Shown here: piece after piece, positions 13,012-50,646 of the stretch | Numbering within the stretch: position 1 is the stretch's first letter | Layout of the letters: each line of letters opens with the position of its first letter | Assembly: GCA_051294905.1 (NCBI GenBank) | Contig: CM119371.1 | Span: forward strand, 22,384,001-22,448,000 | Source of the DNA: Botryllus schlosseri | Taxonomy: Eukaryota | Length of the DNA: 64,000 nucleotides | Direction of reading: 5' to 3' | Program-made: the position numbers and the translations under genes | The notes under the pieces: model-generated | Databases searched by the model: none | What the model saw: the letters and a program-made list of their open reading frames with translations, nothing else | Told to the model about the DNA's origin: nothing

Positions 13012-13128
13012 CTACTGACACTTTTAAGCTGAGCCCAGAGTTGGGCAATATACATGCGAAAAGTTCAAGAGCAGAAGAACATGGAACAGATACTCCAAAC
13101 GCATCCACTCTCGAAAAGGATGCACCAG
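13012..13128 (+). CDS. Repeated linker exon R1 (TDTFKLSPELGNIHAKSSRAEEHGTDTPNASTLEKDAP)
   Basis: GTGTTTCAG acceptor, CAG|GTGAGT donor, 117 nt, phase 1-1, open; splice sites and frame kept in five paralogous copies. Confidence 0.8.
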
Positions 13129-13276
13129 GTGAGTCCCGTTTTGTTGTGTGATATTTAGGGATGAGCTTAGAGAATGACAGATTTTATTCATATATCATGT
13201 CCTCACATTTGAATCGGGTATGCGTCGAATCGCTACAACAGAAAATTCAAATTTGATGTGATTTTCTTGAGCACCA

Positions 13277-13558
13277 GTTTGTTTGTTTGATGTATTTATG
13301 GTGTGTGTCGACTATACTATGGTCATTTACACCAGGCCCAGAGTTTATTTTATGTATGATTCCGTAACTGCCGATTTGTAGCACGGCCCACTTCTAGGCT
13401 TTTCGTAAGACACCGCTCACGCGGATTAGTTGTCGAGAAAGAACCTAGATAAACCTCCAACACTTAGGTTGGAATTCCAGCATCGACCTTGGTCGGACTC
13501 GAACCTGCAACCCATTGGTGTTGCAGCTGTGGATTATACCACTACGATATTTCGCCAC
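13277..13558 (-). mobile_element. tRNA-derived SINE
   Basis: Minus-strand A-box-like TAGTGG and B box GGTTCGAGTCC, (AAAC)n tail; further minus copies at about 19451-19728, 21753-22033, 24768-25034, 27921-28193, 48160-48420. Confidence 0.8.
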
Positions 13559-14964
13559 TTAAGCAACAGTTGTAAGCTTGTCGACGTCTAAATCGCTATG
13601 AATTTCGTCTTGAATAACCCCGTTCTCGGTCAATAAAAATATTATTTTGTTGTGGAAATTGACGACCTAATTTTTACGGGTGTTTTAGAACCTGCGACCC
13701 TCCTGCGTGTGAAGGCGCACAACATAGCTTAAATTGCAATTGTGTATGGACAACTGCAATGACAAAGCGGATTATCAGGATTGTAACCAAGTCAAGGTTC
13801 CGACTCACAAATGAATTCTACTTTCATAGTTTTCACTCGAGTCAAATCATTTTCACATTACCACTGATTTAAGTCCTAGTCTAACCCAAGTCAAGGTTCA
13901 CTGTATTCACTTGTGTTCACGGTTCATTACCGAGTTCAATCCTGTTGAAGCCACTGAATAGAAAGGCTCGCAATACTGCCAAAGTTATTTTTCTCCGTTT
14001 ATCAGTTCACGGCCCTATTTTCCAAGTATTAGGACTGATAGAAACAGCAATAATGTGTAATTTTACTATTCGAAGTTACAATGTGTCCTGTCCGTCATAT
14101 GACTTGGTTCGAGTCATTTTACTCATTTGAAAAACTGAATCATTACAATCCTGCTATTTGTTTATTTGAATCATCTGTGGTTCGATTTTGCTCATGCCAG
14201 TCATATTGCATAGAAACTGCAATATCCAGGATGAAAATAAAATAAACTTATATATGCATTTTTTTGGTAATATGATGCAATATTTATTATAGTTATCGAT
14301 CGTTTGACAAATATTTTCGTCCATTAGAGAGCTTATCACAGAAATGTGTTGATCGATAATGTTTATCTCCTTAAATGCTGCGCCTATTCGATAAAATATT
14401 AGCTTATTAGTTCATTTCATCGAAATGATTGAAATGAAAAGGGGTACAATAATGTACGTTTCCATTTTGCCTTCATATGAGGAGAGCGAGGATGATAACA
14501 ATGTTGTATGCGATGATGAACTTTTGCTGAGCTTCAATGATATTGCTTTATGGTAATAAGACAAGCATAATTTATTATTTTGCAGTCGCAGCCAAATCAT
14601 TCACTCTTAGCAAAAAGAATGTGTGTTTCCACCCTTGTGCAACCCCTGATATACGGATGTGTTAATGCGTAGCGCGTCAACAAATTCTCTGATCCTACTC
14701 CGATCCTATTTTCTAAAGCTCCGGTCCGACTCCGGTCTGACTACTAGGCCGGATCCTGGAAATGATCACTGTACTCTGGTCCCAAAAACTTCGATAATAA
14801 TTATTTACTCACAGGATGGTATTGAATATTGGTTGAAACAATGCAAAAAGGAAATTGAATACTCAAAGTTCTAACTCAACCCGTATCTGAAGTAATTATG
14901 CCAACTTAAACTTAATATGTGGTATATTTCCATGATAGTATCACTTTAACTATTGACTCCAAGT

Positions 14965-16069
14965 CAATGGTTCTCAACAGGGGGTCCGCGGACGGGGTGT
15001 GCGAAGCATTTGCGGGGTCCGCGAAGCCTCTAAATTTACAAAATGTTTGATAACCTCTAATTCGAATTGTTGTTAATTTGAGAAATCAAGAGACAGTTTT
15101 GCTTAATTAGTAGTAAAACTCCAGGACTCACATTAACAGAATGGCCGTCTGGGGTGAAATATCCTACTGTCTATGCAAACTCATTTTAATAGCTAAAGTG
15201 CCAGCCTATATACTAATACAAACAAAGTGCTGTTTAGATGTGTTTTGTTGAGGGTTATGGAAGAATAGAAAGTTGTGGAGTAGTAAGGTCGACAACTTCG
15301 AAACACTTGCGGAAATCCATTTTCTTCTGTAATATAGGCTTCATATAACCACTATTTCATAATAAATTCGAAATGAGCTGTTAGATAAAATGACCAGGCT
15401 GGACATCATGTGTTAATTAAAACTTCTTTTTTCAATATTGGTGCCATATTTGTTGCTATCATACCCAAATGTGTCGTCGGAAGCGTTACGCGCTAATATC
15501 ACATTCACCAGCACCTATCGTCGTGTAAATCGATTTGATGCACCCATTCATATCAAGTCGAAAGCGCGAATTTTCAAGACACAACCATGTATGCAGTTTC
15601 GGGATTCATTTTGAACTATTAATAGTCCACGCAATTTGTACATAAATAGTGTGCTGCTATTTTCAAGAAATGTCATTTTGTTGCTTCTCATCACTAGCCT
15701 ACAGTTAATATTTGCACAAGACAGACGACGACTTCACGATGGTTGAGCTAAATTTGAACTAAAAGCTGAGGGGGTACGCGGGCGGCCGTGACGGTCTAAA
15801 AGTGGTCCGCGAGAGAGAGAGAGAGAGAGAGAATTTTTTATTCATCATCGCAAAATAACAAAACAGGCAACAAAATAGCATAAACTGGACACATACAAAA
15901 AAATGGTTACAGTGTCAATTTCAAAGTAAATGAGATGTGTACGAATACGATTTACAGTTCATAGGATTGGCCAATATGTTTTACGATTGCAAGATGAAGC
16001 TGCAGCGAAGTGATCTGTTGATCATCGAGTCTGCTGCAGCAGCGAAGAATAAAAGGTTAAGAACCACTG
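14965..16069. mobile_element. Non-autonomous hAT (Charlie-like) element with nested retro-insert
   Basis: Ends CAATGGTTCTCAAC / GTTAAGAACCACTG; TSD decayed; right end recurs at about 22497-22567 and 25498-25569; same left end at 51638. Confidence 0.75.
15811..16041 (-). mobile_element. 5'-truncated retroposon 3' end with (CT)n tail
   Basis: Minus strand ends GATGAATAAAAAATT(CT)n, like the LINE tail at 35910-35936; absent from the paralogous empty sites near 22540 and 25543. Confidence 0.7.
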
Positions 16070-16611
16070 CTCTAGGGTTTACCACGCTTTTCGACCTTTG
16101 GATGTGAACATACATTCTTTCCGCTAAGAGTGTATGCCCTGAAAATATACTAGCTTGCGACCGAATGAAATGGTAAAAACTGAACTTAGGCCAAAGCTGC
16201 TTTCTCCTTGAATACGAAAATATATAAGACGAATTAAAATGTGGTCCGGGCATTGTAATCGCCAATATCCCCAGCCAAAGTTAGAATTGCAACGGTATTG
16301 CTCCAATATTTTAACTACGCGTTTGCGGCATGGGTATGCACGAGGTTGCGCGACCAGCGTTTATACAAGGCCCGTGAGTGCTTCAAGTCGTCGTGATTGG
16401 CAGAAACAGGATTGTATAGTTCTATGTATGCATGGGCGGAAGATTTGCAGCAATATAACCGAGGTATAAAACCAATGTTTGCTTAGCTAAATAGGCACGC
16501 TGTACATGTACATTATACAGCGTATTTACGAAAGAGGTGTGGATGTGGACGTTGACCTCAGTCAACGCCTCACTTGGTGTTTCGACTTCCTTGTTGCCAT
16601 ATTACTCGCAG

Positions 16612-16945
16612 CAAGGCATTTTTATAAAATAGGTTGTATCGACACGCTTTGTGTGACTTATGCCTCGTACCCGAGAACGTGGATCACTTCGTCCTCACAT
16701 GCCTAAAATACGATTGGCACCGATCATATTTGACTGGTTTCTTTTTAGGCTTGAAAGTTGAGTTCACTGCAGATAACGTTCTCGTGCGGACAGAACTCCT
16801 ATCGCCTCTCGTTCAGTACATCTTGGCCAGCAATGTGTTGATTTAGGGAATTATATTTTTAGGTTCACGATTTGCGACATGTAAGACCAAATTTTTGTTG
16901 TGGCGCACCAAACCGATAAGTTGATAAGCGCCACAATATCCCATT
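16612..16945 (+). mobile_element. 3' fragment of an I-group-like non-LTR retrotransposon (CCHC C-terminus plus 3' hairpin); copies at about 23095-23428 and 26110-26420
   Basis: HLFKVGCIDTLLCDLCLIPENVDHFVLTCPKY motif (23095 copy) typical of the LINE C-terminal zinc knuckle; GTGGCGC...GCGCCAC stem-loop; absent at paralogous sites near 43110 and 49612. Confidence 0.8.
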
Positions 16946-18299
16946 TTTTTAAACTTTCATTAGATTTTTTGATTTATCAAACTATTTCTTTGTGAATTTT
17001 TTTTCTGGCAAAATACGCTAGTCAACAAATATTAGGCAAACCGTGTAAAACTGATGTTTTCTGGGATTTTGACAAGCACTGATTCCAAATAAAGCATTAT
17101 TTGGAATATCGACCCTAGTTTTTGAGCGGTACCTTTTTGGCTAAAACCTTATATATCGGTCCTTTGATCTAGGTAAAAAAGAGGCCATCCTTGCAAGAAG
17201 CCTCACGAATTCAATTCATTCTTAATGTGTAAACAATGAAGACAATTTACAAGAGTATACTTTTCAAGTCCGACAGAATGCTTCTTTTCCAAAGTAAGAT
17301 CTCGCACCAGGCCATGCAGAATAAACTGATTGAATAACTGAGGACCACATGCGGGTTTTTCATAATCAACTATTATATATCAATGTATGTGCAGTATAGA
17401 ATTTAAAAAAAATTAGGATTTACACATATTAAGCGAATTTTTTTTTTGGTATGAATACTCGGGGTGGTGTGAACTGCAGAAATGTTGCTGTTCGCGTTCG
17501 CAAACGAGCTTTAAAACTCTTACGCATGCCCCAATGTTTGCCGTCATTACAACCTCTTTGGCTGCATTTCCTTTCATTTAAACTTTGTACTACTCTCTGG
17601 ATGGTACTGGAAGCGAGAAAAGAAATTCAGCACTAAACGAGCACACACACTGGCTTTGTAGAAACATTTACTCCCAATATTCAGATTTTTGTCCGTGAAT
17701 ATTTATTGATTCTCTGCTTTGAACTTGGTCCCGATACCGAGAATCGTCAATAGATAATATCAACTATAAAGTGATATATTGAATGCATTGTGTGCTAATA
17801 AAAAATGCATAGCAGGGATCGATCTTGATTTGAAGTGTTTATTGGATCATATAAACTAAATACGCGCGATTGAGGTGTTGGCTACTGTGAAACTTGATTT
17901 GGAGGTAATATCTGCAGCTATAGTATAGGAACCAGTATTTCGCTCTGATCAATACCAAGGTAGCAATAGTCTTGAAAATACGTTGTCTGCTCTAGCCTGC
18001 CCTGGACCTTTAGGGCGTAAGCTTATATTCCCTAAGCATAGCAGGGGCTCGTGGCAATTATTTACAAAGCGACGTAAAATATTGATTTCATGGAATTAAT
18101 AGCACATTTGATTTTTCCTGCTGATGAAGTTGGCAATGCTTAAAATGTCAGCTTTTACTTCAGCATTGCGGCTAAATGTGGCATGAGTCGTCGCTATAGG
18201 TATCATGCATATTATTATATTTCATTGCGTAAATGTAGGCTTGGAATTAGCGATATGAAATTCTGTGACGCCACAGGTTGGTGTTCAGGATCGCGATCG

Positions 18300-18557
18300 C
18301 CGATCCCGCTGTTAACTCAGCATATTGATAAAAGCCCAGAGAAAGAGTGAGCCGAGCTCCGAAGTCGGCAGCTGAGACCCAATGTGAACGCAAGGAAAGC
18401 AAGAATGAATGTATGAAAATGTATGAGTGCGCGAGGATGAAAATGTCCAAAGACCGAAAGCAAAGAGACTGAACTGTACTAAGTGCATTGTCGTAGCGCA
18501 CAAGGCCTACACAGGCGATAAATACCATTGTTGTGATGTGTAATAATAATAATAATA
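18300..18557 (+). mobile_element. Retroposon 3' fragment with (TAA)n tail
   Basis: Present only in this duplication unit; ends GTG(TAA)5; replaces the right end of the embedded hAT element. Confidence 0.55.
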
Positions 18558-19184
18558 GTAAATACGGTGATTTCAGCTCATTGACGGGCATAGGTAATTT
18601 CTAAACTAGGACCAATCGGGCAAAACTAACGTCGTATTCATCGTCAAAAACACCACAAAACACCGTTAAATGTTCCGAAAATTTATCCTCAATTCGTTGA
18701 CCAGTGATATAACTAAAGAGAATAGGCAATGTTATGTTTGCTGCGTTGCGAGCAAAAAAGTACTATGACCTTAATCGAATTTTTCATTCTAGAATTTATA
18801 TTTAATATACCTATATTGGTCACTTTATATTCTACCGGCACCGATATATTTATATCACAATGATATTACAGTCCTGATGAAGTATTTTCAAAACTTACAA
18901 TTCATCATCATTTGCCAAATTATTTTCTATCAACGCATTGCGGTGCTATTCGGGTACGCCAAGTCTGTCCATATCTTTGTAGGCGGTTGACCAGCCGCTA
19001 GATTGGACGGATAGAAGGACCGATATATGTTGATAATAAACTGGTAGATATCGTAGGTGTCGGAACGAAATTCAATGATTGATTGTTTTCCTTGCGAGCC
19101 TATTTTTCTGCAAAATGCGCAGCCTCTTCAGACATAGTTTATTGACTGATATATTTTCTGATGTTGATAATTACGGTGTTTCAG

Positions 19185-19301
19185 CTGCTGAAACTGTTAG
19201 GCTGACACCAGACATGGTCAATATACATGCGGAAAGTTCAAAAGTAGAAGAACATGGGACAGTTCCTTCAAACGCATCCACTCTTAAAAAGGATGTACGA
19301 G
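19185..19301 (+). CDS. Repeated linker exon R2 (AETVRLTPDMVNIHAESSKVEEHGTVPSNASTLKKDVR)
   Basis: GTGTTTCAG acceptor, GAG|GTGAGT donor, 117 nt, phase 1-1, open. Confidence 0.8.
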
Positions 19302-20267
19302 GTGAGTCCCATTGTGTTCTGGGATGATTTAGGGAGGATCAAAGAGAATGACAGATTTTATGCATATATCATATCTTCACATTCGAATTGGGTATGTAAC
19401 GAATTGCTACAACAGAAAATTCAAATTTGACGTGATTTCCTTGAGCATCAGTCTGTCTGTTTGATGTATTCATGGTGTTTGTCTACTACTGTGGTCATTT
19501 ACGCGTTCCGGGAGTTTCTCGTTTTTGATTCTGTATCTTCCGACTCGTAGCATGACCCACGTCTAGACTTCTCGTAAGACGAAGCTCACGCGGATTACTT
19601 TTTGGGAAGGGACCGGGATAAACCTACAACACTTGGGTTGGAATCCTGCGGAGTCGACCTTGGTCGGACTCGAACCCGTAGCCCATCTGTGTTGAAGCAC
19701 TATATTATACCACTATGCTAACTCACCACTTAAGCAAGAGTAGTAAGCTTGCCAGCGTCTAAATCACTATGAATTTCGTTTTGAATAACCCCGCTCTCGG
19801 CCAATAAAATGGACGACCTAATTTAAACGGGTAGTTTAGAACTTGCGACCCGCCTGCCTGTGAAGGCGTATATATAGCATAGCATAAATCGTAATTGTGC
19901 ATGGGCAACGGAAATTTCCAGGATTGTAACCAAGTCAAGGTTCCGAATCACAAATGAATTCTATATCGATGTTTTACATTCGAGTCAAGCTATTTTCACT
20001 TCACCAACGACTTAATATCCGAGTCTAAGCCAAGTCAGTGTTTATAGACTCGGGTCTCCGTTCAAGTCATCGTGTTCACGTTTCATTTTCGATTTCAATC
20101 CTGTTGAATCCTCCTAATTCCACTTTGCACGAGTGATATAGAAAGGCTCGCAGTGCTAATATAGTAATTTCTCTCCGTTTATCAGTTTACGGCCCCATTT
20201 TCAAGTATTAGGAATGATAGACGAAATAGTGATGTGGTAACTTTACTATTCTTCGACGTTACAATGT

Positions 20268-20960
20268 AATGTATGTATGTATGTATGTATATTGGGGTAA
20301 TGGTGCTTACGAACTACGGCCTTGTGCACCAGACCAAAGTGTTGTAGGCATGTGTACTCGATTCTCCTACTACATTGTAGCTGCCTCTCGGTGAGGAAAA
20401 CATAATCAATCACAAGCAAAATTGTGTGAGGGTTGCCGAGAAGTGACACAATGTCTATATATTAATTATCGACTGTGAAAATTGCTCCTGTCTCGGGTGG
20501 CTCGGCTCTGAAGACTATGTCATATCGAGCCTCCCGTCTACCTTGCATGCCGCATTTCACTGTTACATTTTTGTAGTGTTATGTTGATATGTAATGTATA
20601 CGAATAAAGATTCTCTCTCTCTCTCTCTCTCTCTCTGTAAGCACATGGTTCGTATTGCTATGTCCTTAAAATAGTTTCGATGTGAGCTATATTAAAAATA
20701 TTGTAAGAAGAAATGCTCAGCCGTCTCTATAACGCCACATGTTGCACAAAGGCCATCGTCGTGACATCCAATTCTATGTAAGTGCCCGTTCAATTTGCAA
20801 TTCCCATTGCCCAGTCTGAAGCCGTAACAATATTGCTGTTCCCCTTCTTCATAGTCCCAGTTGTTGCGATATATCATGTGCGGCGTGAATTCGCTTGTAG
20901 AGGTTTTCGTAAACATTCGTTTAAAATTTATTTTTCTTTTTTTCGGGAGTCAGTTCATTG
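20268..20960 (-). mobile_element. 3' fragment of an I-group-like LINE with (ATAC)n tail, interrupted by a (CT)n-tailed insert (about 20430-20636, + strand)
   Basis: Minus ORF 20692-20916 contains FRLGNGNCKLNGHLHRIGCHDDGLCATCGVIETAEHFF (LINE zinc-knuckle-like); TATG repeats at 20270-20290; nested AATAAAGATT(CT)n. Confidence 0.72.
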
Positions 20961-21492
20961 ATAATTATTTTAGCAATTTTTTCTCATTTCGTTGACCAGT
21001 GATACAACAAAAGTCAATATGCAGCGTTATGTTGGCTGCGCGACGACCAAATAACTCCTACGATCTTAATCGATTTTTTCATACTAGAATTGTTTTTCAT
21101 ATAGCTGTATTGTTCACTTTCTATGTTACTGATTACAATATATTTTTATAACTATGATATTACAGTCCTTATTAAGTATTTTAAAATCTTAAAAATCATC
21201 ATCATTTGCAAAATTATTTTCAATCTGCGCATTGCGGTGCTATTCGGGTACGCAAGGTCTATCCATATATTTTAACACGGGTGAGGAGCCGTCAGATTGG
21301 AATGATGGAAGGACCGATGTATGTAGATAAGGAGCTTGTAAATATCGTAGGTGTTGGAACGAAAATCAATGATTGATTGTTGGCCTTGAGAGCCCATTTT
21401 TCTCAGTTCATCTACTGTGAAATGTGTGGCCTCTTCATACACAGTCGAATGACTAAAATTTTCTTGTGATATTGATAATTACGGTGTTTCAG

Positions 21493-21603
21493 CTACTGAC
21501 ACTATTAAGCTGATACAAGATATCGACAATATACATGCGAAAAGTTCGTTAGCAGAAGAACATGGAACAGACACTCCGACCGACTCCATTCAGAATGCAC
21601 GAG
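21493..21603 (+). CDS. Repeated linker exon R3 (TDTIKLIQDIDNIHAKSSLAEEHGTDTPTDSIQNAR)
   Basis: GTGTTTCAG acceptor, GAG|GTGAGT donor, 111 nt (in-frame 6-nt shorter than R1), phase 1-1, open. Confidence 0.8.
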
Positions 21604-24507
21604 GTGAGTCTCATTTCGTTGTGTAATATTTAGCGATGAGCAAAGAGAATGACGGATTTTATTCATATATCATGTCGTCACGTTTTAATCAGGTATGTGT
21701 CGAATTGCTACAACAGAAAATTCAAATTTTACGTGATTTCCTTGAGCATCGCAGTCTGTTCGTTTGATGTATTCATAGAGTGCGTCGACTATAACTATGA
21801 TGATTTACACCAGACCGAGAGTTTCTTCTATTCACTTCCGTATCTGCCGGCTTGTAGCATTGGCCACTTCTAGGCTTTTCGTAAGACACCGCTCACGCGG
21901 ATTAGTTGTCGAGAAGGAGCCGAGATAAACCTCCAATACTTAGGTTGGAATTCTGGAGTTGACATCGGTCGGACTCGAACCCGCAACCTATTGGTATTGC
22001 AGCTGTTGATTATACCACTTCACTATCATGCCACTTAAGCAACAGTAAGCTTGCCAACGTCTAAATCACGATGAATATCATTTGAATAACCCCGTTCTCG
22101 GTCAAGAAAAATAGTATTTTGTCGTGGAAATGGACGATCTAATCTATACGGGTGGTTTAGAACCTGCGACCCGCCTGCCTGCTAAGGCGCATCATAGCAT
22201 AAATTGCAATTGTGCGTGGACAAAGGAAATTACCAGGATTGTAACCAAGTCAAGGTTCCGACTCACGAATGAATTCTACTTTCATATAGTTTTGACTCGA
22301 GTCAAGTTATTTTCACTCCACCATCAAATTCAAGTCCGAGTCTAAGCCAAGTCACGGTTTATAGACTCGAGTCTGAGTTCAAGTCATTGTGTTCACCGTT
22401 CCATCCCGTGGAATCCACTTAAATCCCCCCTGCACGAGTAATATGAAAAATTTCGCAATACTCATATAGTAATTTTCTCAGTCCATCAGTTTACGGTCAG
22501 GGAGGTCCGCGGGCAGTCGTGACGGTCTTGAAGGGGTTCGCGAAGAATAAAAAGTCGAGAACCACTGCTCCAGGGCTTACCACTCTTTTCGGCCTTTATA
22601 TGAGAAGATATACATTCTTCGCGCTAAGAGTGAATGCCCTGAAATATACTAGCTGGCGACCGAATGAGATTGTAAACACTGGTCTTAATTTAAAGCTGCT
22701 TTCTTCTTGATTTTGGATATATATAAGATGAATTAAAATGTGGTCCAGGCATTGTAATCGCCATTACCCGCAGCCAAAGTTAGAATTGCCACGGTATTGC
22801 TCTAACTACGGGTATGCAGCATGGGTATGCACGACCAGCGTTTATACAAGGCCCGTGATTGCTTCACGTCGTCATGATTGGCAGAAACAGGAATATATAG
22901 TTCTATGTATGCATTGGCGGAAGATTTGCACCAATATTAACGAGATATAAAACCAATGTTTGCATAGCTAAGTAGGCACGCTGTACATGTACATTATACA
23001 GCGTATTTACGAAAGAGGTGTGCATGTGGACGTTGACCTCAGTCAACGCCTCACTTGGTGTTTCGACGTCCTCGTTTCCATATCACTCCCAGCAGGGCAT
23101 TTATTTAAAGTAGGTTGCATCGACACGCTTTTGTGTGACTTATGCCTCATACCCGAGAATGTGGATCACTTCGTCCTCACATGCCCAAAATACGATTGGC
23201 ACCGATCATATTTGATTGATTTCTTCTTAGGCTTGAAAGTTGAGTTCACTGCAGATAACGTTCTCGGGCGGCCAGAACTCATATCGTCTTTCCTTCAGTA
23301 CGTCTTGGCCAGCAATGCGTATGTTTAGGGAATGTTACTTTTAGGTACACGATTTGCGACTTGGAAGACCAAATTTTTGTCGTGGCGCACCAGACCGATA
23401 AGGTGATAGGCGCCACAATGTCCCATATTTTACCTTTCATTAGATTTTATTATATATCAAACTATTTCTTTGTGAATTTTTTTCTGGCAAAATACGCTAG
23501 TCAACAAATGTTGAGCAAACCGTGTAAAAGTGATTTTTTCCGATATTATGACAAGCACTGAACCCAAATAAAGCCTTATTTTTTCATATTGACCCTAGTT
23601 TTCGAGCTGTGCTTTTTTGACTAAAACCTTATATATCGGTCTTACGATCTGGGTAAAAGGGAGGCCATCTTTGCAAGAAGCCTCACGAATTCAATTCATT
23701 CTCACTGTGTAAACAATGAAGACAAATTACAAGAGTATAATTTTCAAGTCCGACAGAATGATTCTTTTCCAAACAAAGATCTCGCACCAGGCCATGCAGA
23801 ATAAATTGATTGAATAACTGATAACCACATGCGGGTTCTTCATAATCAATTATTATATATCTATGTATGTGCAGTACAGAATTCAAAAAAAAATAGGATT
23901 TACACCTATTATGCGAAATTGTTTTTGGGATGAATACGGGGGGTGGTGGGAACTCGAGATTACCTGGGGGTCATGTGAGCTGCAGAAATTATGCTGTTCA
24001 CATTCGCAAACGAGCTTTAAAACTCTTACGCACACCCCAATGTTTGCCGTCATTGCAACCTCTTTGGCTGCATGTCCTTTGATTTAAACTTTGTACTACT
24101 CTCTGGATGGTACTGGAAGCGGGAAAAGAAATTCAGCACTAAACGAGCACACACACTGCCATTTTCCAAAATGCTATTAACTTTGTAGAAACGTTTACTC
24201 AAAATATTCCGATTTTCGTTTGTGAATATTTATCAACTCTCTGCTTTGAACTTGGTTCCGATACCGAGAATCGTCTATCCATATATTTAAACACGGTTGA
24301 GGAGCCGACAGATTGAACTGATAGAAAGACCGATGTATGTAGATATTGACCTTGTAGATATCGTAGGTGTTGGAAAAAAATCAATGATTGATTGTTGGCC
24401 TTGAGAGCCAATTTATCTCAGTGCATCTACTGTGAAATGCGTGGCCTCTTCATACATAGTCGAATGACTTAAATTTTCTTGTGATGTTGATAAATACGGT
24501 GTTTCAG

Positions 24508-24618
24508 CTACTGACAATATGAAGCTGATACCAGATATCGACAATATACATGCAAAAAGTTCATTACCAGAAGAACATGAAACAGACACTCAAAACGACT
24601 CCATTCAGAATGCACGAG
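24508..24618 (+). CDS. Repeated linker exon R4 (TDNMKLIPDIDNIHAKSSLPEEHETDTQNDSIQNAR)
   Basis: GTGTTTCAG acceptor, variant donor GAG|GTGCGT, 111 nt, phase 1-1, open. Confidence 0.75.
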
Positions 24619-27600: not shown

Positions 27601-28396
27601 TAATAAAACATTTGATTTTTCCTGCTGATGAAGTTGGCAATGCTTAAAATGTCAGTTTTTAGCTCAGCATTGCGGCTACATGTGGCATGAGTCGTCGCTA
27701 TAGGTATCATGCATATTATTATATTTCATTAAGTAAATGTAGGGTTGGAATTAGCGATATGAAATTCTGTGATGCAACAGGTTCGTGTTCAGGATCGCCT
27801 TCATATAAAAACATTCAGGGGTTCACAGTTCGCACCTTACCTAGTGAAAACGGTGGGCAAGCGAGTGGCGCAGTGTCCTAAGCGTCACGACACCAATGGT
27901 TACTGGTTCGAGTCTCGGCTCTGTCTGTTTGTTTGACGTGCTGTGCGTCGAATACCATGGTGATTTACACCAGATCGAGAGTTTCTTCTGTTCGCTTTCG
28001 TATCTGCCGACTTGTAGCACGGCCCAGTCATAAGCTTTTCGTAAGACACCGCTCACGCGGATCAGTTGTCGAGAAGGAGCCTAGATAAACATCCAACACT
28101 TAGGTTGGAATTCTGGAGTCGTCCTCTATCGGACCCGAACCCGCAACCCATTGGTGATGCAGCTGTTGATTATACCACTTCGCTATCTCGGCACGTAAGC
28201 AACAGTTGTAAGCTTGTAAACGTTGAATCACTATGAATTTCGTTTGAATAGCCCCGTTTTCGGTCAAGAAAAATGGTATTTTGTCTTAAAAATGGACGAC
28301 CTAATCTATACGGGTGGTTTAGAACCCGCGACCCGCCTGCCTGCTAAGGCGCATCATAGCATTATTTGCAATTGTGCATGGACAAAGGAAATTACC

Positions 28397-32688: not shown

Positions 32689-32735
32689 AAACTGCTATAC
32701 TGCTCTCTCACTGCAAACGCAACCCACACTAAAAA

Positions 32736-37089: not shown

Positions 37090-37815
37090 CAGGGCTGGCC
37101 AACCTTTTCGGCCAAAGGGCCACATTCGATCGATGAACTTTTGCGCGGGCCACTATCCGCGCGAAGCGCGAAAATTTTTTGAAGTTCATAGGTCAATAAT
37201 ATTGTCACTTGACTATATTGCGGGCCTGCTGTATATCACTAGGCTATGTTTGCGAGGACTGGGCTATTCGGCGCATGGACATATCGATATGGAAAGCTGT
37301 GACCGACACGCGTCAATCATTTCTTGCCTAGGTTTCACGGTGCATGGACGGTCTTACTGCGAGAGCAAACGCAAGGTCGCATATGTTGAACGACACTTTG
37401 TCTCGTAATCGCGAACATAGTTATAGACTTTGATACATTAGGTGTTCTTCCATTTTCACAAAAGGGCAACAATATTAAAAACAAGACATCGAGTGACAAC
37501 ATATTGCGCTAAGCTTGTAGAAACTTTTTACCTTTGATAAATCTATCGTAAATTATTCTGCTTTGTTGTAGTGTACGAAGATGTACCAATATGTGAATGG
37601 CTGATGGACCTGTCAATGCGTCGGAACTGATATTTTAGTCATCACATCTCAAGTATTGCGGCCGGACTATTCAAATTTTTGGTTGGCCTTGCAAGCTCAA
37701 AACCTGTGCAATCCATTTTTGATGATATTAGAAATTTCGGAAATTACCTCGCGGGCCACTCAAAACCTTCTCGCGGGCCACATGTGGCCCGCGGGCCACG
37801 GGTTGGCCGGCCCTG
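37090..37815. mobile_element. Non-autonomous hAT (Charlie-like) MITE
   Basis: TIRs CAGGGCTGGCCAACC / GGTTGGCCGGCCCTG; perfect TSD TCTTACAA; GCGGGCC subterminal motifs. Confidence 0.92.
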
Positions 37816-38233
37816 TCTTACAACATAAGGGTCAGTATGTATGCCAGAAAGCAACAATGATTCAGTTAGCGATATGGCTAATAGCGGTTGTAAGCTGCAG
37901 TAGCGAGCGGGTTAATCGACGGCAACAACCGGTTAATGAGTCTGCGGCAGAAGCGCGAGAATTGTATCTTGTGAAGCATCATTTCGACATGAAATGCGGG
38001 TGATCGCATCCCATTTTGTTGACTGGGGCATACCTGGAACACGTTATATACCTTGTAGAGTAACTTTTAAATGGAAATATAAACATCATTTGACATCTAA
38101 TGCGCATGATACGGCGTGTGATCGCATCCCTTTTTGTTGACTGGGACGCTGCGACGCCAATTCAATTGGCTAGAAAAATTTCCGTTTTATACTTTGTAGA
38201 GTAACTTTTAAATGGAAATCTAATATGTTGCAG

Positions 38234-39061
38234 AAATCGAATACCCATTCGAAGAAAAAAGTGTTAACGTCGATCATACCAGCAAAGAAGTGGAAATAGG
38301 CGAATGTAGTGTTTTCTTTCCCGATGGATGTTTCAATAAAATGGAAAAAATCACCATCCGGGCAGAAATCAATCCTTCGATATACCCTTCTGAGTATGAA
38401 GCAATTACACCAACATTGACGATCAACGCACCAAAATTAAGATTGCCCGCAACAGTCAAATTACATACTTGGTGTGTCTCCGGAAGCGACAAGCAGGAAA
38501 TTTACATCATGCGATGTGACGAATCATCCAATCGATGGAGAAAAATTGAATGCAAATATTTGGAATATTCAAGATATATCGAATTCCGCATTCCCCAATT
38601 TTCCGGATATGCAGTATTCCGAAGTTTAAAAGAGAAATTGCTAAGTTTGATTCATCCTCTACCACCACGCTATTGCTTGCAACCATTCTTTTACTACAAA
38701 GGCGACTCCTTCGCGCTGGCGGTAATTCCTGACAACAAGCTAATGGAAACAAACCTTCAAAAAATCATGGAGAAGAACTATGGGCCGGACGTTGAGCTTA
38801 AGAGACCTAGGGTCATTGAAGCTGATAAACATAGCACTATCAAAATGGATATAAAAAGCTACGAAACTGGTATCAACGTTAAGCCCCAGGATAAGACATT
38901 AAGTAAAAAGGTCAAGGACATAACGCGAAGCCCGACACCAATATATGAATTATTGATCATACAAGGTACTGAATCGATATCGAGCGAATGGATACCCATG
39001 ACATTTAGAGTGGTAATAAATGCAAAGCTAATCAACGGGTCATTTCCTTGTCCGAATCCAG
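38234..39061 (+). CDS. ZU5 domain plus UPA-like region, exon copy 1 (276 codons)
   Basis: TTGCAG acceptor, CAG|GTAAGT donor, 828 nt, phase 1-1, open; ZU5-like pattern SVFFPDGCF...AITPTLTI...LPATVKLHTW...IYIM...W...IEFRIPQFSGY. UPA assignment is positional inference. Confidence 0.8.
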
Positions 39062-39112
39062 GTAAGTTTTTTGGAGAATGTCCTCATCTATACACGTGAA
39101 CACCAACTACAA

Positions 39113-41430
39113 GCGAGATAGCATAGTGAAATAATTCACAGTTACAAAACCAATGGGCTGTGGTTCCTAGTCCGACCGATCTCGAGTCCGGAATTGTTTA
39201 ATTGTTGAAGGTTTGTTTAGGTCAGTGGTTCCAAATCTTTTTCGGTGTGAGGGCCAAATTTAGAATTTCATAGTACGGTCGGGGCCGCACGAATAATACG
39301 GGTATGAAACGGACCCAAACAGTCATCATGGCTATTTCGGAGTAGTTTTATTGCCCTGGCGAGATTTCAAAACTGTACACAATTTACCGCTACTTATCTG
39401 CTGCATTGGTTGTCCGTTGAGTGAATCAGCTTTTCTCGCCTAAACGCGCGAATCACGAGAAATCTCTTTAGTTTCATGACTGAATCGATCAATATGATCT
39501 GGAATTGCATGTATTGCTATCAATTTTCATCCTGTCTCTGTTCACGTATTCTGATTTACCGGTAGAGCTGAGTAAAGTGTGTTTGAATAGGTGTGGGCCC
39601 CCTCAATAGTAATTAAACATATCCGGGGGTATACCCATTATCAGGAACGTAACAGCACTTCGTAAGGACTCCGGGCTCCCATAGGGTGATAAGCTGACCC
39701 CGCATCACGTTGTTCGCTTTTGCTACGAAATTAAAGTTGTACTGTTTAGTGAGACAGCGCGATGCGCGAATATTTCGATAATTCATGACAAAATCGGTGA
39801 ATTAGATCGGGAATTGCATGGTTGTCCTCTTTGCCCAAGTAATCAGATTTACAGGTAGAACTGAGTGGAACTGCAAACCCCGTAAATTAAACATCTTCGG
39901 GCGGGCGGACCCCTAGGTATGACTTCTTTGCATGATGTTATTTCGTGACCTCCTTTCTGCTATATCAAAAAATGTTGAGTTGCCTAAACCTACTAAACTG
40001 AAAGATCACACGATTTCAGATTGGAATTTCTTCACTGGCATATAATTTTGTTTCCTGCGGTTTGGTATTTGTCTTGTGAGGTTTAGATTGTCAAGACAAG
40101 AACAACCGGGGCCTGTCATTTAGGCGCCTATATGGACAATTAAACCTATATGTATTTTGTATGTATAACGAAGTTTTTGGTATTTCGAAGTTTTTGGTCA
40201 GCATAAAAGCCGTCCTTTACGGCCAGGCCTTTATCGCTGCCAATTGTTCTGACACACTTCTTGGAGTCACAAGTTACATGGCCTTTAACTTTATATGTCT
40301 TGGTGCGTTGTGGTGCGGTCATGGCCAACGCTGATATGCCCATTCCTATAAATCTTGCGTATTTTTTCATGGGGAAGAGTACCCAATAATCAATATATGT
40401 GGCGAATCGAAATCGCGGCAAACGACAAATTTTTTTGAAAAAGTTGCATAAACTTTCAAAAAATACTCCCTAATTTATGCTAATTCACGAAATAATTTTT
40501 TGTCCCCTTAGAGCTCGGCCACCCTTAATTGGGAGGTTTGGGGTGCGGCAGTTGCGGCCCTGACTACAGGCCTAGCGGGGACTACCAATTATGCTGCTTG
40601 GATAAGCAGTATGCCTCTCGGCGTATTCAACCGTGAGTCACGTGTTGCACATCTAGTTAGCATAGGGTTACCATACATCCTCTTTTAAGATGATTTGTCC
40701 TATTTTTTTAAAATTTTTTTAAAGTGTTCTCGAAGGACGCCCAAATGTCTTCTTTCTTGAGATTTTGTCTTATTTTTGGGAGATTTTGGTTAAATATAGG
40801 GCCAACTTCGACTGATATACATCAAGTCAGCACTGTAGGAACGCTACGGCGACTATTTCGGGAGCTGGACCGGAAGTTGACCTTTTTTTCAGTCAACCAC
40901 CTGTTAATGTGAAAGAAAAACTGTGTTTTCCGGGAGTTGAGCCTCTTTTTCTTTTTTAGTCAAGCGACCACGAAGCGGGAAAAATTTACCATTTTTCATG
41001 ATTTCCCCCTGGTTTTGAAAGTTATCAATACCTATTCATATCTATAGCAACTGCTCGTTCAATTGGAAAGTTAGGGCACATTGCATTGAAACAGCAGTGA
41101 CGTAACGTTAGCAGTCTATACTCATAACTCTCCTGCAATTCTATAATAAAAAAAAACTACAGAGGCCAAGCCCGACAAGAGTATTTTATAAATATAAATT
41201 TTATTTTTTGTCATAAATCGATTTCTTAATATATTTTTGGGGCCGCGCTTGGGATTCACTGGTCTAGGTTCCTCCTTGCCATATCACCCGTGTAAGCGGT
41301 GTATTAGAGAAGTCGACACGTGGGCCGTGCTACAAGTCGGCAGTCACGGAATAAAAACTAGTAAATAGGCCTGCTGCAAATGACAGTGATAGCCGACAAA
41401 CACCATGAATACCTGAAACAAACAAAAAAA
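39113..41430 (+). mobile_element. tRNA-derived SINE split by a hAT insertion
   Basis: 5' half 39113-39222 and 3' half 41262-41430 with AAAC tail; uninterrupted paralogue at 50647-50880. Confidence 0.8.
39223..41261. mobile_element. Non-autonomous hAT element (composite, with a nested TAGGGTTACCA end at 40663)
   Basis: Ends CAGTGGTTCCAAA / TTGGGATTCACTG; TSD GTTTAGGT/GTCTAGGT; empty site near 50750; inverted relative at 44014-45688. Confidence 0.85.
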
Positions 41431-41978
41431 ACTGCAAGCGCACACACACATAAGAACACCACATACATTGAACCTGATGCAGTGCAGTGTTGGGATGACG
41501 CGAGTTTTCTTTCTCGTCTGACTTAACTTGACTCGATTCATTTTGCTATAATGACTTGACTCGATTTGATTCGGCGTATCAGAAATGTGAATTGACTCGT
41601 GACTCGGTGCAAAATTCACGAGTCAATTTCAATTCCTCAAGTAAATCGTGCTGATAAAAATCACTGTATCTTTCATATGTGTATCTGTATGCCCTGGAAA
41701 TACACTAGCTTGCGACCGAATGAAATTGAGAAACTGGTCTCAGAACAGAGCCGCTTTCTCTCAGATTGCAAAAACATACAATATGAGTTAGAATCTGGTC
41801 AGGGCATATAATAATCCCCAAAATCCCCGCAAAAGTGAGAATTGCTAGGGTATTGCCCAAGTATTGCTTGTAACTATCTGCATGCGGTCTGCACAGGGAC
41901 GAGGTTGCGCGACCAGCGTTTATACATGGCCCGTGTTTGCTTCACGCCGTCATGATTAGCAGAAGCAGGAATAAATAG

Positions 41979-42919
41979 TAGGGATGGCGTGGAACCTCGG
42001 TAATTTAGAGGTTCACGTTCACAAACGAGCCTTGGTAGGTTCTGCACTGTGAACCTTTTTCATAAACGACACTTTATTCGTCATTATATCGTCTTTGGTT
42101 GAAATTTACTGCATTTCAACTGCGGATCACTCCATGCATGACGATGGCAGCTTAAAAAATCAACACTAAAACGAGCATGCACCTTGACAATCACAAAATT
42201 TATCCCTGCTTTGTTTGAAAGTTTGCTCGAAATATCCAACTTTCTGTTTGTGAATATTTAGACTTTAGAGACTCTCTGCTGTGTGACCGGCAAATGAGCG
42301 AAATACACTACATGTAGGTAGTCAGCGAATGATGCTTATTCAAACAACCAATGAAATTGATATCGCGCTGTCTGATGTAAAAAAATCTAACAGGCGTACG
42401 AGGTCCAGCTCGATGTCATATGTTTGCCGAATCATAAAAACCAAATCCGTGCGATCGGGGCGTTGGCTACGTGTGTAAAACTTGTTAATGGGGTAAAATC
42501 CGTTTCACACTATGCTCAATATTAACATAGAAACACTCAGACGCCGAATACATCGTCCGGTCTTGCATTGACCGCGGAGGCGTAAGCTTATGTTCACGTG
42601 CAAGTCCTCGTCCAAATTGTTGGCAAAGCGACGGAAGATATTGATTTTATGGGATTATTCTATCATTTGATTGCACCAGTTTATACATTTGGCGACGTTT
42701 AAAAAGTCAATATACTTCAGCATTGTGGCATTATGTGGCCCGAGTCGTCGCTAGGTATCGTGTACATTAATATATATCACGTCACTGAGATGTAGGGTGG
42801 TAATTAGCAATATGACGTCACGTGACGTCATGAGGTTCACGTTCGCGTTCACACAGAACCTTTCAAAAAGGTTCGCGTTCACACGAACCTGAACCTTTCA
42901 GAGGTTCACACCATCCCTA
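41979..42919. mobile_element. Non-autonomous hAT element with TAGGGATGG termini
   Basis: TIRs TAGGGATGGCGTG / CACACCATCCCTA; perfect TSD ATAAATAG; GAACC/GGTTC subterminal repeats; empty site in paralogous units. Confidence 0.92.
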
Positions 42920-44013
42920 ATAAATAGTTCCATGATTATATGCATGGGCGGGAGATTTGGAGCGATATAACCGAGATATAAAACCAATGTTTGCGTAACT
43001 AAGTAGGCACGCTGTACATTGAATAACGTATTTACAAAAGAGGTGTGAATGTGGATGTAGACGTCACTCCACGCTGCTCGGTGTTTCGACTGCCTTGTGC
43101 CGTATTACTCGCAGCAGTGTTTTTGATACGTATGCGGCGTGAGAGATCGTCTGCCTCTCAAATTATAAAAAATATTATTTATAATAGTGATAGTCTTATA
43201 ATTCGAGATGGTTTAAACGTGAGGTTCATGTTCGCCTTCCTTGTGTGAACCTCAGAGATTCGGAAGTTAACGTTCACAAACAAACCGTGGTAGATTTTGC
43301 ACTGTGAACCTTTTTCATATATTTTCATATATTTTCAATTCATTATCACATCTTTGGTTGAAATTGATTGCATTTCAACTACGGGCCATATAAATATTCC
43401 ACTCGTCACCGCAGTCGAAGCCGTGTGTGGTAGTTCCCGTTCGAGTCATAGATTGCCTAGATCTTGCCGTCGTTAAAGAGCTAGGCTATGCCACTAATTA
43501 GAAAACAATCACACACCCATGACCTGAGACCAATGAAGCAATCTTTTTCGAAGTTTTGACACCAGGTGATTCGCTGGACATCCTAAATTTGGTGACATAA
43601 ATTTGTCGAAAAATGGTGAACATTTTTTTTTACTTTCATTTGATTTTATGATTTATCAAACTATTTCTAAGTGGATTTTTTTCTGGCTAAATACGCTAGT
43701 CAGCCAGTTTTAGGCAAACCGTGTGAAAGTGATGCTTTCTGGGATTATGGCAGGCACGATTCCAAATAACGCCTTTTTTCAATTTGCCTCTAGTTTTTGA
43801 GCTGTGCCCTTCATATCTCAGCCTTATGATCTGGAAAAAACAGGCCACCATTGCAAGAAGTCTCAGAAATTTAATTTATTCTCAATGCGCAAACAATGAA
43901 GACAATTTACAAGAGTGTAATCTTTAAGTCTGACAGAATGCCTCTTTGCCAAACCCAGATGTCGCAGCAGAGCATGCAGTTTGAATTGATAGAATAACTG
44001 AGACCCTCATGCT

Positions 44014-45688
44014 CAGTGATTCCCAACCGCGGCCCGCAGATAGCCTTCTTGCGGCCCCCGCACAAAATATTAAGAAATCGAGTATTGACCAAAAATAAAA
44101 TTTTACATTTATGAAATGCACGTACTTGGCTTGGAGTCCGAAGTTTTTAATTAGGATTGCAGGATAGTCGTAAGTAGACTACTAACGTTACGTCGCTGCT
44201 GTTTCACTGCAATGTGCCCTAACTTTCCAGTTGAACGAGCAGTCGCTATAGATATAGGTATAGACAGGACCATAACTGCGGCACGACACACCCTCCAATT
44301 GGGGGGGGGGCGAGCTCGAAGGGGGCTCAAAATTATTTCGTGAATAAGTATAAATTATAGAGTATTTTTTGAAAATTTGTGCATCTTTTTACTCTAGGCG
44401 TGATTTCATGCTGCCAAATATCTTGACTTTTGGGTACTCATCCCCCCAAAAAATATCATTATCGAAATGGTCGTATCGGCGTTTGTCATTACCGCGCCAC
44501 GACGCACCAAGACATATTAAGTTTTACGCCATGTAACATGCGACTCCAAGAAGTGTGTCAGAACGATTGGCAGCGAGTAAACCTTGGCCAAAAAGGAGTG
44601 CCCTTATGCTGACCGAAGCTTCGTTATATATACAAAATACTGTCTTGGAAATCTGAGCCACACAAGACACATATCATGCCGCAGGGAAAAATTATATTCC
44701 AGTGAAGAAATACCAATTTGAAATAGTGTGCGCCTCTTAGTTTAGTAGCATACGTTTGGGCTATTCTATATTTTTTGATATAGCAGACAGCAGGTTACGA
44801 ATTAACATCATGTTACGGGGTCATACCAACGGGTTCTGCAGTGTCCAAGACACCTCACTTAGCTCTACCGGTAAATATGATTAAGTGAGCAGCGAGGACA
44901 AGGAATTTATAGCAATATGCAATTCCCAATAATATTGATCGATTTTATCATAAATTATCGAAAATTTCGCGCCTCGCGCTTGCTCACTTAACGGTACCGC
45001 TAATTTTGTGGTAAAAGCGAACAAGGTGGTAGGGGTAGGTTTTTTACCCTATGGGAGCCCGAGACCAAAGTTTTTTGGGGGGAGGGAGGCTCACGAAGTG
45101 CCTTTTTGTTCCTGCCAACGGATATACGCCCGGAGATGTTTAATTATTATTGAGGGGTCCTACCTTTTCAAACACACCTCCCTCGGCTCTACCTGTAAAA
45201 CTGATTACGTGAGCAGAGAGAGGATAAAACTTGATTGCAATATACATGCGATTCCCGATCATGTTGACCGATTCAATTATGAATCACAGAAAATTTTCGC
45301 GCTTCGCGCGTTTAGGCAATAAAAGCTGACTCACTAAACGGCCCCGAAAGCAGCATAATTGGTAGTCCTATAGCTCACGATCGGAGTGTCCGAATAATTT
45401 GAAAGCTACAGTCGTACTGATTCTAAAAATACGAATTGAAATCTCGCCAGGGCAATAAAACTGCTCCAAATAGCCACCAAAGGTCGATTGTTCTGAACTA
45501 TGGGAGCGAAGCAACACAAAGACCATAACAATGGCCAAGGGCTTCGAGCGATTGATCGGAACAATGCCAATTTCCATATTTTGATGACTATTTTGGGTCC
45601 GTTTCATTGCCCTGGTATTCGTGCGGCCCCGACCGTACTCTGGAATTCTAAATTTGGCCCCGACATCGAAAAAGGTTGGGAACCACTG
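44014..45688. mobile_element. Non-autonomous hAT element, inverted relative of 39223-41261
   Basis: TIRs CAGTGATTCCCAACC / GGTTGGGAACCACTG; no TSD; flanks indicate an adjacent deletion. Confidence 0.85.
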
Positions 45689-46208
45689 GTCTTGAGAATA
45701 CATTGTCCGGTCTAGCCTGCCCTAGACCTTTAGGGTGTAAGCTTATGTTTCATAGGCATAGCAGGGGCTCGTGTCAATTATTTACAAAGCGACGTAGAAT
45801 ATTGATTTTATGGAATTGATAAAGCACTGGGTTTTTCCATCTGATTATGTTGGTAATGCTTAAAAAGTCAGCTTTTAGCTCAGTATTGATGCTAAATGTG
45901 GCATTAGTCGTCGCTAGGTATCGCGCATAATATTATATTTTATTACGTAAAAGTAGGGTTGGAATTAGCATTATGGCATTCTGTGACGTCACAGGTTCGT
46001 GTTCAGGATCGCGTCCATATAGAGCCATTCAAGGGCTCGCAGTTCGCACCATTCCTAGTAATTGTGGTAATCTAGGCCCATTGAAGGGTATAAGTAACTT
46101 TTAAACTAGAATCAATCGGGCCGAACTAATGTCGTATTCGTCGTTACAAACACCAGAAAACACAATTAGATGTTCTGACAATTTTCTCATTTCGTTGACC
46201 AGTGATAT

Positions 46209-47460
46209 CCAGGGTTGCCATCGCCTGGGACCAAAAAATAAGGACAGTTAAAAAATTAGATTAGCATGAAAAAGCGTTTTTGTACATACTTTGTATCTAT
46301 ATGAGGCGTGGCATATCACATGCCATACTTTTCGCCAGAAATAATCTACGTCAGCAACTCCTTGTTATTAGAAAGTGCTTCATGGACCTTACGACATCTC
46401 AGGTCTAGGTTCACCTTTACTCAAGGCCGAAACAGCACTTCGTCAGTAAACCAAACTTCTTCACCTCGTTGAGATCGGAGGCGTCAACTAAGATGAAAAA
46501 AGTTCATACAAAATAATTTTTGAGCGTACGTAGCAAGAACTCCAGTAACTTATTTACGATGTTGAAATCGGGGAATATTGCCGATTCTCAGACTTTCATG
46601 TGTATTTCAAGGAGGTTCCATTGCCCTGATTAGATTTTGGTGTATATTTTTTCGAATTAGTGAGTTAGTAGCTTTCAAATGAAATGAACATTATTGAATT
46701 TAAGCACGCGGGTCGTCAGCTATGGGGTTAGCAATTATGTTGCGTTCAGATTGCTGAGCACTAATTTCCTCCGGGCAAGCAAGCACGACGACGGGTGCTG
46801 CGTATCTATCCGTAGGTTAGTTATCTATAGTTAGATACCTTTGAATTCTCTCTCATAATCGTCACGAAAAACGTTTTTACGTCTCTGCTCACTTTAACTA
46901 ATCAGATTTAGCCTTATTAGTAGCTAAAACTATTTGCGCAAGTGCAATATAATTTAGAAAAATTTAACAATGATTGATAGCTTTACTACTTAACCAATGT
47001 GTCGACTGCACTGCTTTTTCTTTACTGCGCAATAAATGCTGGCTTCCCCACACTTGAGCTTATTCTGCTGTAGACCAAACAGCAGAAACCTGGTACTACT
47101 GTTTACTGCTAAAATGACGTCCGCTGCTGTAGCTTGGTACAGACGAAACTGCTAAACCACCACTCACTGCCCTAGATTCGCCACTTAGAAGTCAAATCTT
47201 ATGGTGTATACGTCACGAGAGTTCCTTTCATTTATGATGTCATAAAACCTGGACGTAAAAGCATAATTTTAGAATGTTATGCAACACAGATACCCGAGGA
47301 AAACGATCGAAGTTCTGTATGTGGTGGAAAATAAGACAAAATAAGGACGCAAGTCGAAAATAAGGACATTTCTTAGAAATAAGGACAGTTTAGTTTTCTA
47401 AGACGTGGCCCTTCAAAATAAGGACAAATCTTAGGAATAAGGACGGTATGGCAACCCTGG
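46209..47460. mobile_element. Non-autonomous DNA transposon with CCAGGGTTGCCA TIRs
   Basis: Perfect 12-bp TIR, AATAAGGAC subterminal repeats, ATAT duplication, empty site CCAGTGATATAAC in a paralogous unit. Confidence 0.88.
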
Positions 47461-47894
47461 ATATAACGAAAGTCTATACGCAGAGGTATGTTGCCTGTGC
47501 TGCGAGTAAATACTCCATTGATCGAATTTTTCATACTAGAATTGTTTTTGATATACCTGTAATGTCCAATTTCCTTATGACGTATTTTCAAAACTTTCAA
47601 ATATTCATCGTTTGCAAAATAATTTTCTGTCTGCGCACTGCGATGCTATTCGGGCACGCAAGGTCTATCCATATCTTTATACACGGCTGAGTAGCCGACA
47701 GATTGGACTGATAGGGACTGATATATGTACATATTGAACTTGTAGATATCGTAGGTTTCGGAACGAAAATCAATGATTGATTGTTGGCGTTGAAAGCCCA
47801 TTTTCCTCAGTGCATTTACTGTAAAATGTATGGCCTCTCAGACATTGTTGAATGTCTGGAATTTGTTATGGTGTTGATAATTACGGCATTTCAG

Positions 47895-48005
47895 CTACTG
47901 ACACTGGTAGGCCGATACCAGAGACCGAAAATGTACCTGCGGAACGTTCAGAAGCAGAAGTACATGGAACAGACACTCCAAACGACTCCATTCAGAATGC
48001 ACGAG
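47895..48005 (+). CDS. Repeated linker exon R5 (TDTGRPIPETENVPAERSEAEVHGTDTPNDSIQNAR)
   Basis: ATTTCAG acceptor, GAG|GTGAGT donor, 111 nt, phase 1-1, open. Confidence 0.8.
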
Positions 48006-50595: not shown

Positions 50596-50646
50596 GTAAG
50601 TTTTCGAGGGAATGTCCTGATTTATGCACGTCAACACCAACTGCAA

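Follow-up and report, generated by a model that had tools for sequence, protein, structure and literature searches.

A probable small symmetric exon in six copies ahead of ZU5-UPA exons of Botryllus schlosseri, with residues changing at about the rate of its flanks

In a 64,000-nucleotide (nt) stretch, rich in introns and repeats, of the Botryllus schlosseri genome (contig CM119371.1, positions 22,384,001 to 22,448,000; hereafter the window, with positions counted from its first letter), a short element with splice-site boundaries and an open frame occurs in five copies, R1 to R5. A sixth copy, R0, lies upstream of the window. Judging from frame and boundaries, the copies are probably genuine phase 1-1 coding exons of a small gene cluster whose members share a large ZU5-UPA exon. 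In our best reading, to which we assign a probability of about 0.5, they encode a loosely constrained spacer or tail, with the exon architecture kept and the residues changing at a near-neutral rate. The first-pass annotation had described the five copies as linker exons that selection both keeps and diversifies, as in a bait region. The pattern behind that proposal is real; diversifying selection and an unconstrained spacer are not yet separated.

R1 to R5 were found by repeat search and alignment within the window (Table 1). On the 5' side all five copies carry tttcag and on the 3' side gtgagt, with the exception of R4, and their spread in length comes down to a single 6-nt difference. This bears out what had been noted at first sight, namely five copies with AG/GT boundaries, without stops and with one length difference, and the count given for R1 against R2 proved exact (38 codons, 17 amino-acid changes, 2 silent-only changes). 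Across R0 to R5 exactly one frame is open, consisting of 2 nt, 36 or 38 codons (in R1 to R5) and 1 nt, which corresponds to phase 1-1. An in-frame ATG is confined to R2, R4 and R0. The encoded peptides consist to 68-81% of polar, proline or glycine residues, and a charge-hydropathy plot places four of the five on the disordered side, in agreement with the disordered spacer that had been considered. Pfam gave no match for the peptide, and no homologue was found outside the gene cluster. In the 495-Mb genome, the open-frame peptide had no match beyond the six copies and the other-frame peptide of R5 likewise had no further match. An Rfam search returned no RNA family at the R exons.

Table 1 Predicted exons, genes, duplicated units and the full-length long interspersed nuclear element (LINE) of the cluster. 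Positions refer to the window unless a genome coordinate is given.
Feature	Position	Strand	Remarks
Exon copy R0	G000:C1:22356962-22357129		27 kb upstream of window; 108 nt; 9-nt deletion; donor gtgaat; in-frame ATG
Exon copy R1	13012-13128	+	117 nt, phase 1-1; positional counterpart of R0; no in-frame ATG
Exon copy R2	19185-19301	+	117 nt; most diverged copy; in-frame ATG at 19214
Exon copy R3	21493-21603	+	111 nt; sister of R4
Exon copy R4	24508-24618	+	111 nt; donor gtgcgt; nearest copy to intact ZU5-UPA exon; in-frame ATG at 24519
Exon copy R5	47895-48005	+	111 nt; single copy of gene B; groups with R3/R4
Gene A, predicted last coding exon	38234-39099	+	phase-1 acceptor ttgcag/AA; 287 complete codons; stop 39097-39099
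Gene B, ZU5-UPA exon	49760-50660	+	80% identical to that of gene A; +2 frameshift at nine-G run 50314-50322
Gene C	G000:C1:22351428-22365167		upstream of window; carries R0 and, of the large exon, the UPA half alone
Older units with R1, R2	11289-20276	+	about 6 kb each
Tandem units with R3, R4	21257-24278 and 24273-27263	+	about 3.0 kb each, 88.6% identical
Full-length LINE	32212-35651	+	ORF1 and 972-aa ORF2 (endonuclease and RVT_1); within the 13.6-kb intron from R4 to the ZU5-UPA exon

The main positive argument that the copies are real coding exons is the fit of their phase to the acceptor of the ZU5-UPA exon. A phase-1 acceptor stands at the homologous place in seven of the eight paralogous ZU5-UPA exons examined, and the exons examined carry no start codon of their own. 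An upstream coding exon ending in one spare nucleotide is therefore needed, and each R copy reads into the ZU5-UPA exon as ...E-I-E-Y-P-F... as well as into the next R copy. If translation began at the ATG of R4, the predicted protein would comprise about 320 amino acids (aa), which is the size of the short relatives. Under a neutral model the 287-codon frame of the gene A exon would stay open with a probability of 0.018 at a divergence of 0.10, so that gene A is, or recently was, functional.

The stop-to-stop frame of this exon spans 38224 to 39099 (291 aa), and together with its 80%-identical paralogue at 49750-50660 it is the only large open frame on the + strand of the window that does not belong to a transposon. 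The frame stops 12 codons past UPA, and the G-K-F tail following UPA is kept as protein in distant relatives. Since this tail is conserved, it is coding sequence and not intron, which makes 38234-39099 the last coding exon. A GGTAAGT near the end of the exon, considered as a donor to further exons, was ruled out because it encodes this same tail. A Pfam search of the 115 + strand open reading frames (ORFs) of 39297-47734 and 50840-64000 revealed no CARD, death or other domain.

According to an AlphaFold2 model built with 22 relatives, the large exon of gene A folds as ZU5-UPA (predicted local distance difference test 90.7, predicted template modelling score 0.86). The top Foldseek match in the PDB was the ZU5-UPA-DD structure of UNC5b (3g5b, E 1.5e-9, TMq 0.69), followed by ankyrin-B ZU5-ZU5-UPA-DD (4d8o), and the lower matches include CARD8 (7jn7_B) and the FIIND of rat NLRP1 (7crv_B). 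The 291-aa ORF itself matched none of the Pfam families at E ≤ 0.01, and so has no match of its own to the ZU5 profile (PF00791); word-index protein searches with it at near, longer and shorter lengths gave no match at E ≤ 0.001. An exhaustive HMMER search recovered 32 relatives, some of which carry NACHT and several of which match Pfam ZU5 in the aligned part (PF00791 in P0007 and P0008). Two of them, P0002 and P0008, carry NCBI names and are uncharacterized proteins of Styela clava (LOC120334961, LOC120338482). In the genome of B. schlosseri itself, at least 36 sequences across chromosomes C1-C16 match the ZU5-UPA exon, many of them with open frames of 280-460 aa.

Comparison of the window and the 40 kb upstream of it with themselves revealed a three-gene tandem cluster in the order C, A, B. 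In gene A, R1 to R4 lie ahead of the sole intact large ZU5-UPA exon of the cluster. In gene B, the shifted frame past the frameshift is open for 131 codons, so that the lesion must be very recent unless the assembly contains a homopolymer error here. Gene C carries a LINE tail in place of the ZU5 half and one internal TAA. Window positions 1934-16947 align colinearly, at 87-91%, with the 5' portion of this truncated gene. In each of the two units with R3 and R4, the exon and its flanks are accompanied by a short dispersed repeat and part of a LINE tail, and the maximum-likelihood (ML) tree of the copies is ((R0,R1),(R2,((R3,R4),R5))). The duplicated units are largely made of dispersed repeats: a first look at the genome gave 1292 candidate matches for 11950-12400 and 2256 for 21605-22100, of which about 21755-22035 is the repeat part. 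A third dispersed repeat within the duplicated units, at 4757-5555, likewise had more than 1000 first-look candidates.

All six copies retain the open frame and the AG/GT splice sites. The two indels of the exon have lengths divisible by three (6 nt and 9 nt), which holds for 0 of 11 locus-specific flank indels and for 2 of 14 from the repeat part (2 of 25 in total); given four such events among 27, the hypergeometric probability that both exon indels are of this kind is 6/351 = 0.017. In neutral simulations on the estimated tree, all six frames remained open in 0.19 of the runs and AG..GT was kept in all six copies in 0.11. Furthermore, the best-conserved window of the flanks is the 20 nt before the acceptor (mean difference 0.10). 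Together, the retained features are more than chance would easily give. The earlier claim that selection keeps the exons is thus moderately supported, by the in-frame indels, the retention of splice sites and frame and the phase fit to the ZU5-UPA exon. Its companion claim, that the neighbouring introns carry many indels, is true in kind and moderate in extent, with 11 events in 388 locus-specific flank columns against 2 in 117-118 exon columns.

The claim that selection diversifies the residues was not borne out to the same degree. All codon tests rest on six sequences of at most 38 codons, which is too small a set for site models such as M7/M8. Pairwise differences range from 0.09 to 0.25 in exon and flanks alike, and a partition analysis gave rates of 1.14 for the exon and 0.96 for the flanks, a ratio of 1.20 that does not differ significantly from equality (likelihood-ratio test (LRT) 1.30, p = 0.26). 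Parsimony steps by position numbered 25/15/18 (p = 0.30); third positions of the open frame have the lowest number, and no codon periodicity is visible. Pairwise ratios of nonsynonymous to synonymous change (dN/dS, omega) after Nei and Gojobori reach 4.1, and the youngest pairs, R3-R4 and R0-R1, yield 0.61, the lowest value, and 1.13. The one-ratio ML model (M0) gave an omega of 1.94 (LRT against omega = 1 of 3.21, p = 0.073); values of omega ≤ 0.7 are rejected (2dlnL 8.1), and 2dlnL is 4.5 at an omega of 5. Simulated neutral evolution in which the frames had to stay open gave a median omega of 0.87, and 8 of 262 runs reached 1.94. The first 22 codons alone gave 3.28 (p = 0.033). As a control, the other two frames of the exon gave 1.40 and 0.54, and six pseudo-frames of the flanks 0.81-1.29.

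Summed over the tree, dN is 0.66 and dS 0.34, compared with a flank rate of 0.47, and the excess in omega stems partly from dS, which is low and, with about 27 silent sites, noisy. The large ZU5-UPA exon shows pairwise dN/dS values of 0.84 (174 codons) and 1.5 (81 codons) between members of the cluster, which indicates that rapid change of the protein is common to the cluster as a whole. The tendency towards omega above 1 in the R exons is hence nominal and not robust. Diversification by selection is not shown by an omega of this size, an exon rate so close to that of the flanks and the lack of periodicity. Judged by the refuting conditions that had been set for it, the proposal is a borderline case. 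A disordered spacer under relaxed constraint, the alternative raised in the first-pass annotation itself, explains the data equally well or better.

The description of the segment as a linker was not upheld, since no upstream domain partner was found within 53 kb by Pfam or by tblastn with the 32 relatives. Pfam searches found no domain in the 150 + strand ORFs of at least 40 aa of window positions 1-24084, and only a hAT fragment in the 104 + strand ORFs of at least 55 aa in the 40 kb upstream of the window; small exons could escape these searches. In the tblastn searches, for which the relatives included their NACHT, LRR-like and FN3-like parts, only ZU5-UPA exons were matched. As far as these searches reach, the segment would therefore be an N-terminal tail. 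The Styela clava proteins LOC120334961 and LOC120338482 and related proteins share a homologous ZU5-UPA at 27-36% identity, whereas the NACHT, LRR-like or FN3-like parts that they have of their own were not found at the Botryllus locus. The R peptides show no sequence similarity to the linkers of these proteins. Long polar stretches also precede ZU5-UPA in related proteins, P0002 and P0008 among them, and in P0002 the stretch consists of tandem repeats, so that such tails are usual in the ZU5-UPA family.

Several candidates for further upstream parts were considered. A conserved repeat at 11950-12400 ('X') was rejected as an upstream coding exon: it has an ORF in the consensus only and, with more than 1000 candidates, belongs to the dispersed repeats. 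A reading of the R copies as a 5' untranslated or start-codon exon through a conserved AACATGG in another frame was ruled out, because the open frame of 117/111 nt fits the ZU5-UPA acceptor. A candidate mini-exon ending in GATATCGTAG followed by GT precedes each acceptor by 128-142 nt, in a phase that would fit. It has a weak donor, however, its frame is broken by stops or a frameshift in R2 and R5, and an in-frame ATG is present only in the R3 and R4 units. In these two units only, at 21320-21351 and 24336-24367, an A-to-G change creates this ATG, 11 codons before the weak phase-1 donor-like GATATCGTAG and GT and in the same frame as the exon, which follows 141-142 nt further on. The ATG could represent a private start mini-exon or chance.

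A number of observations weigh against an architecture kept by selection. The maintenance tests (0.017, 0.11 and 0.19) are all post hoc, having been picked after the pattern was seen. R4 and R0 have weakened donor sites, two of the three cluster genes (B and C) look damaged, and the searches brought up no start-codon exon upstream. An omega in the upper 3% of the neutral simulations also makes some positive selection possible. Furthermore, RNA support is missing. Four RNA-seq runs of the same species, each sampled at about 6-13%, were mapped to 19150-39149, which covers R2 to R4 and the large exon of gene A. RNA depth was 0 in the 667-nt bin of R3 in all four sampled runs; the few reads in the bins of R2 and R4 all fell on dispersed repeats and bore variants, with none on the exons. 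The ZU5-UPA exon had essentially no depth, and no joint was listed at R2 to R4 or at 38234. A search of sequencing runs likewise listed no RNA run with a match to the large ZU5-UPA exon. Gene A thus appears silent in the sampled runs, which give no information on exon choice.

The same RNA-seq runs showed other signals in this region. The LINE of Table 1, whose ORF1 carries a Baculo_FP_2nd-like domain, was heavily covered by RNA in all four runs. The reads show fixed differences and thus stem from other LINE copies. A joint from 34164 to 34851, bounded by CT..AC and thus of GT-AG type when read on the minus strand, was present in every run (70+93, 25+22, 1+2 and 349+408 reads), which points to an antisense spliced transcript through some copy of the LINE. 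A 40-nt island at 27884-27923 reached an RNA depth in the hundreds, with consistent loose ends on both sides that are unlike the window; it is a piece of an abundant RNA that is encoded elsewhere and probably derives from a dispersed repeat. At the far end of the window, two tRNA-His (GTG) genes lie 3 kb apart on the + strand (60214-60287 and 63251-63323).

Silence, damaged genes and weakened donors are also what would be expected if the copies were neutral relics, that is, by-products of segmental duplication in a decaying cluster, with at most one copy per gene in use and intactness a matter of luck at 8-23% divergence. The exon diverges like the introns and lacks codon periodicity, the flank pseudo-frames reach omega values of up to 1.29 (from 0.81) and the other exon frames of 0.54 and 1.40, gene C has no ZU5 half, gene B is frameshifted, and R1 lies inside the block that copies the 5' part of truncated gene C. 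Luck would, however, have to account for exon indels that are both in frame when only 2 of 25 elsewhere are, for splice sites and frames retained in all six copies (the product of 0.11 and 0.19 is small) and for the best-conserved flank window lying directly before the acceptor. It would also leave open the supply of an upstream exon to gene A, whose large exon is kept open and requires one of this kind. We therefore regard relics as rather unlikely, and prefer a tail with kept architecture.

ZU5-UPA is the self-cleaving core of the vertebrate sensors NLRP1 and CARD8, in which the FIIND autoproteolytic site lies between F and S at the ZU5/UPA border and works with a catalytic His. At the corresponding border, gene A has Q-F-S (codon at about 38599), gene B K-F-S and several paralogues H-F-S. 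In NLRP1 and CARD8, a rapidly evolving region ahead of FIIND is described as the protease tripwire (PMC7857732; PMC10249858). The Botryllus locus resembles these sensors in having a polar, fast-changing segment N-terminal of ZU5-UPA and an F-S dipeptide at the border. It differs in that no CARD follows UPA, no PYD, NACHT or LRR was found upstream and positive selection is non-significant. As there is no effector domain to release, the likeness ends at the F-S and the fast region. The best structural match is to the ZU5-UPA-death-domain supramodule of UNC5, ankyrin and PIDD1 (UNC5b and ankyrin-B), from which the locus differs by the lack of a death domain in the exon or downstream and by a sequence identity of 10-15%.

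This precedent (PMC7857732; PMC10249858) is one ground for viewing the segment as a diversifying bait or tripwire before a FIIND-like ZU5-UPA, with the four-copy array of gene A as alternative baits. The omega of 1.94, reached by few of the neutral simulations, the higher value of the first 22 codons and a tree dN in excess of the flank rate would be in line with it. Against this, the test for omega above 1 is not significant, and low dS contributes to the excess as much as high dN does. The youngest pairs have ratios of 0.61 and 1.13, and the ZU5-UPA exon is equally high in pairwise dN/dS. The partners of a bait are missing too: no CARD or death domain follows UPA, whose frame stops shortly afterwards, the Pfam and tblastn searches upstream detected neither NACHT nor LRR nor another domain, and no expression was seen in the sampled runs. 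We consider the bait reading unlikely. Its fullest form, in which four diversified and combinable phase 1-1 cassettes place tripwire peptides before an autoproteolytic ZU5-UPA at a dN/dS of about 2, in a chordate-relative innate-immune family, appears highly improbable. That the copies are not exons at all, and that an open frame bounded by AG and GT arose by chance in a duplicated non-coding segment, is very unlikely as well: the copies are no better conserved than their flanks and have neither RNA support nor a Pfam match or homologue beyond the cluster, but their phase fits the conserved phase-1 acceptor of a large exon that needs an upstream coding exon, their indels are in frame, and all of them have a canonical polypyrimidine-CAG acceptor and a GTGAGT-type donor.

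R1 to R4 are neighbouring and similar, share the same stop-free frame, differ in length by a multiple of three and have GT-AG boundaries, which are the sequence criteria given in PMC5740500 for predicting tandemly duplicated alternative exons. They differ from clusters of mutually exclusive exons in that their lengths are divisible by three and their units, at 3-6 kb, are rich in dispersed repeats. Joint inclusion would consequently not shift the frame, and mutually exclusive use enforced by lengths not divisible by three was ruled out for these copies of 117 or 111 nt. The data show the copies, their phases and rates, the fold and the map of duplications; splicing and translation of the copies, and any choice among R1 to R4, are inferred.

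In the preferred reading of a loosely constrained tail, a single lineage-specific phase 1-1 exon would encode a polar segment of 36-39 residues, probably disordered, that precedes ZU5-UPA in a small protein. A larger duplication at the gene level and segmental duplications of 3-6 kb, rich in repeats, would have carried it to six sites in the three-gene cluster, with four copies now before the intact ZU5-UPA exon of gene A and single copies before gene B and the truncated gene C. The symmetry of the exon would allow one copy, whichever it is, or a series of them to be spliced to ZU5-UPA without a break in the frame. Selection would keep splice sites, open frame and a length divisible by three, the residues would change at about the neutral rate, and some copies may already be out of use.

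The locus adds to tandem exon duplication and to lineage-specific expansion of ZU5-UPA genes, both of which are known kinds of change. It shows segmental duplication piling up small symmetric exons, and also the limits of what six short sequences can tell about selection. The ZU5-UPA family is large in B. schlosseri and barely annotated. If the copies are used, they would represent a young tandem exon duplication that is building a variable N-terminal tail on a ZU5-UPA protein.

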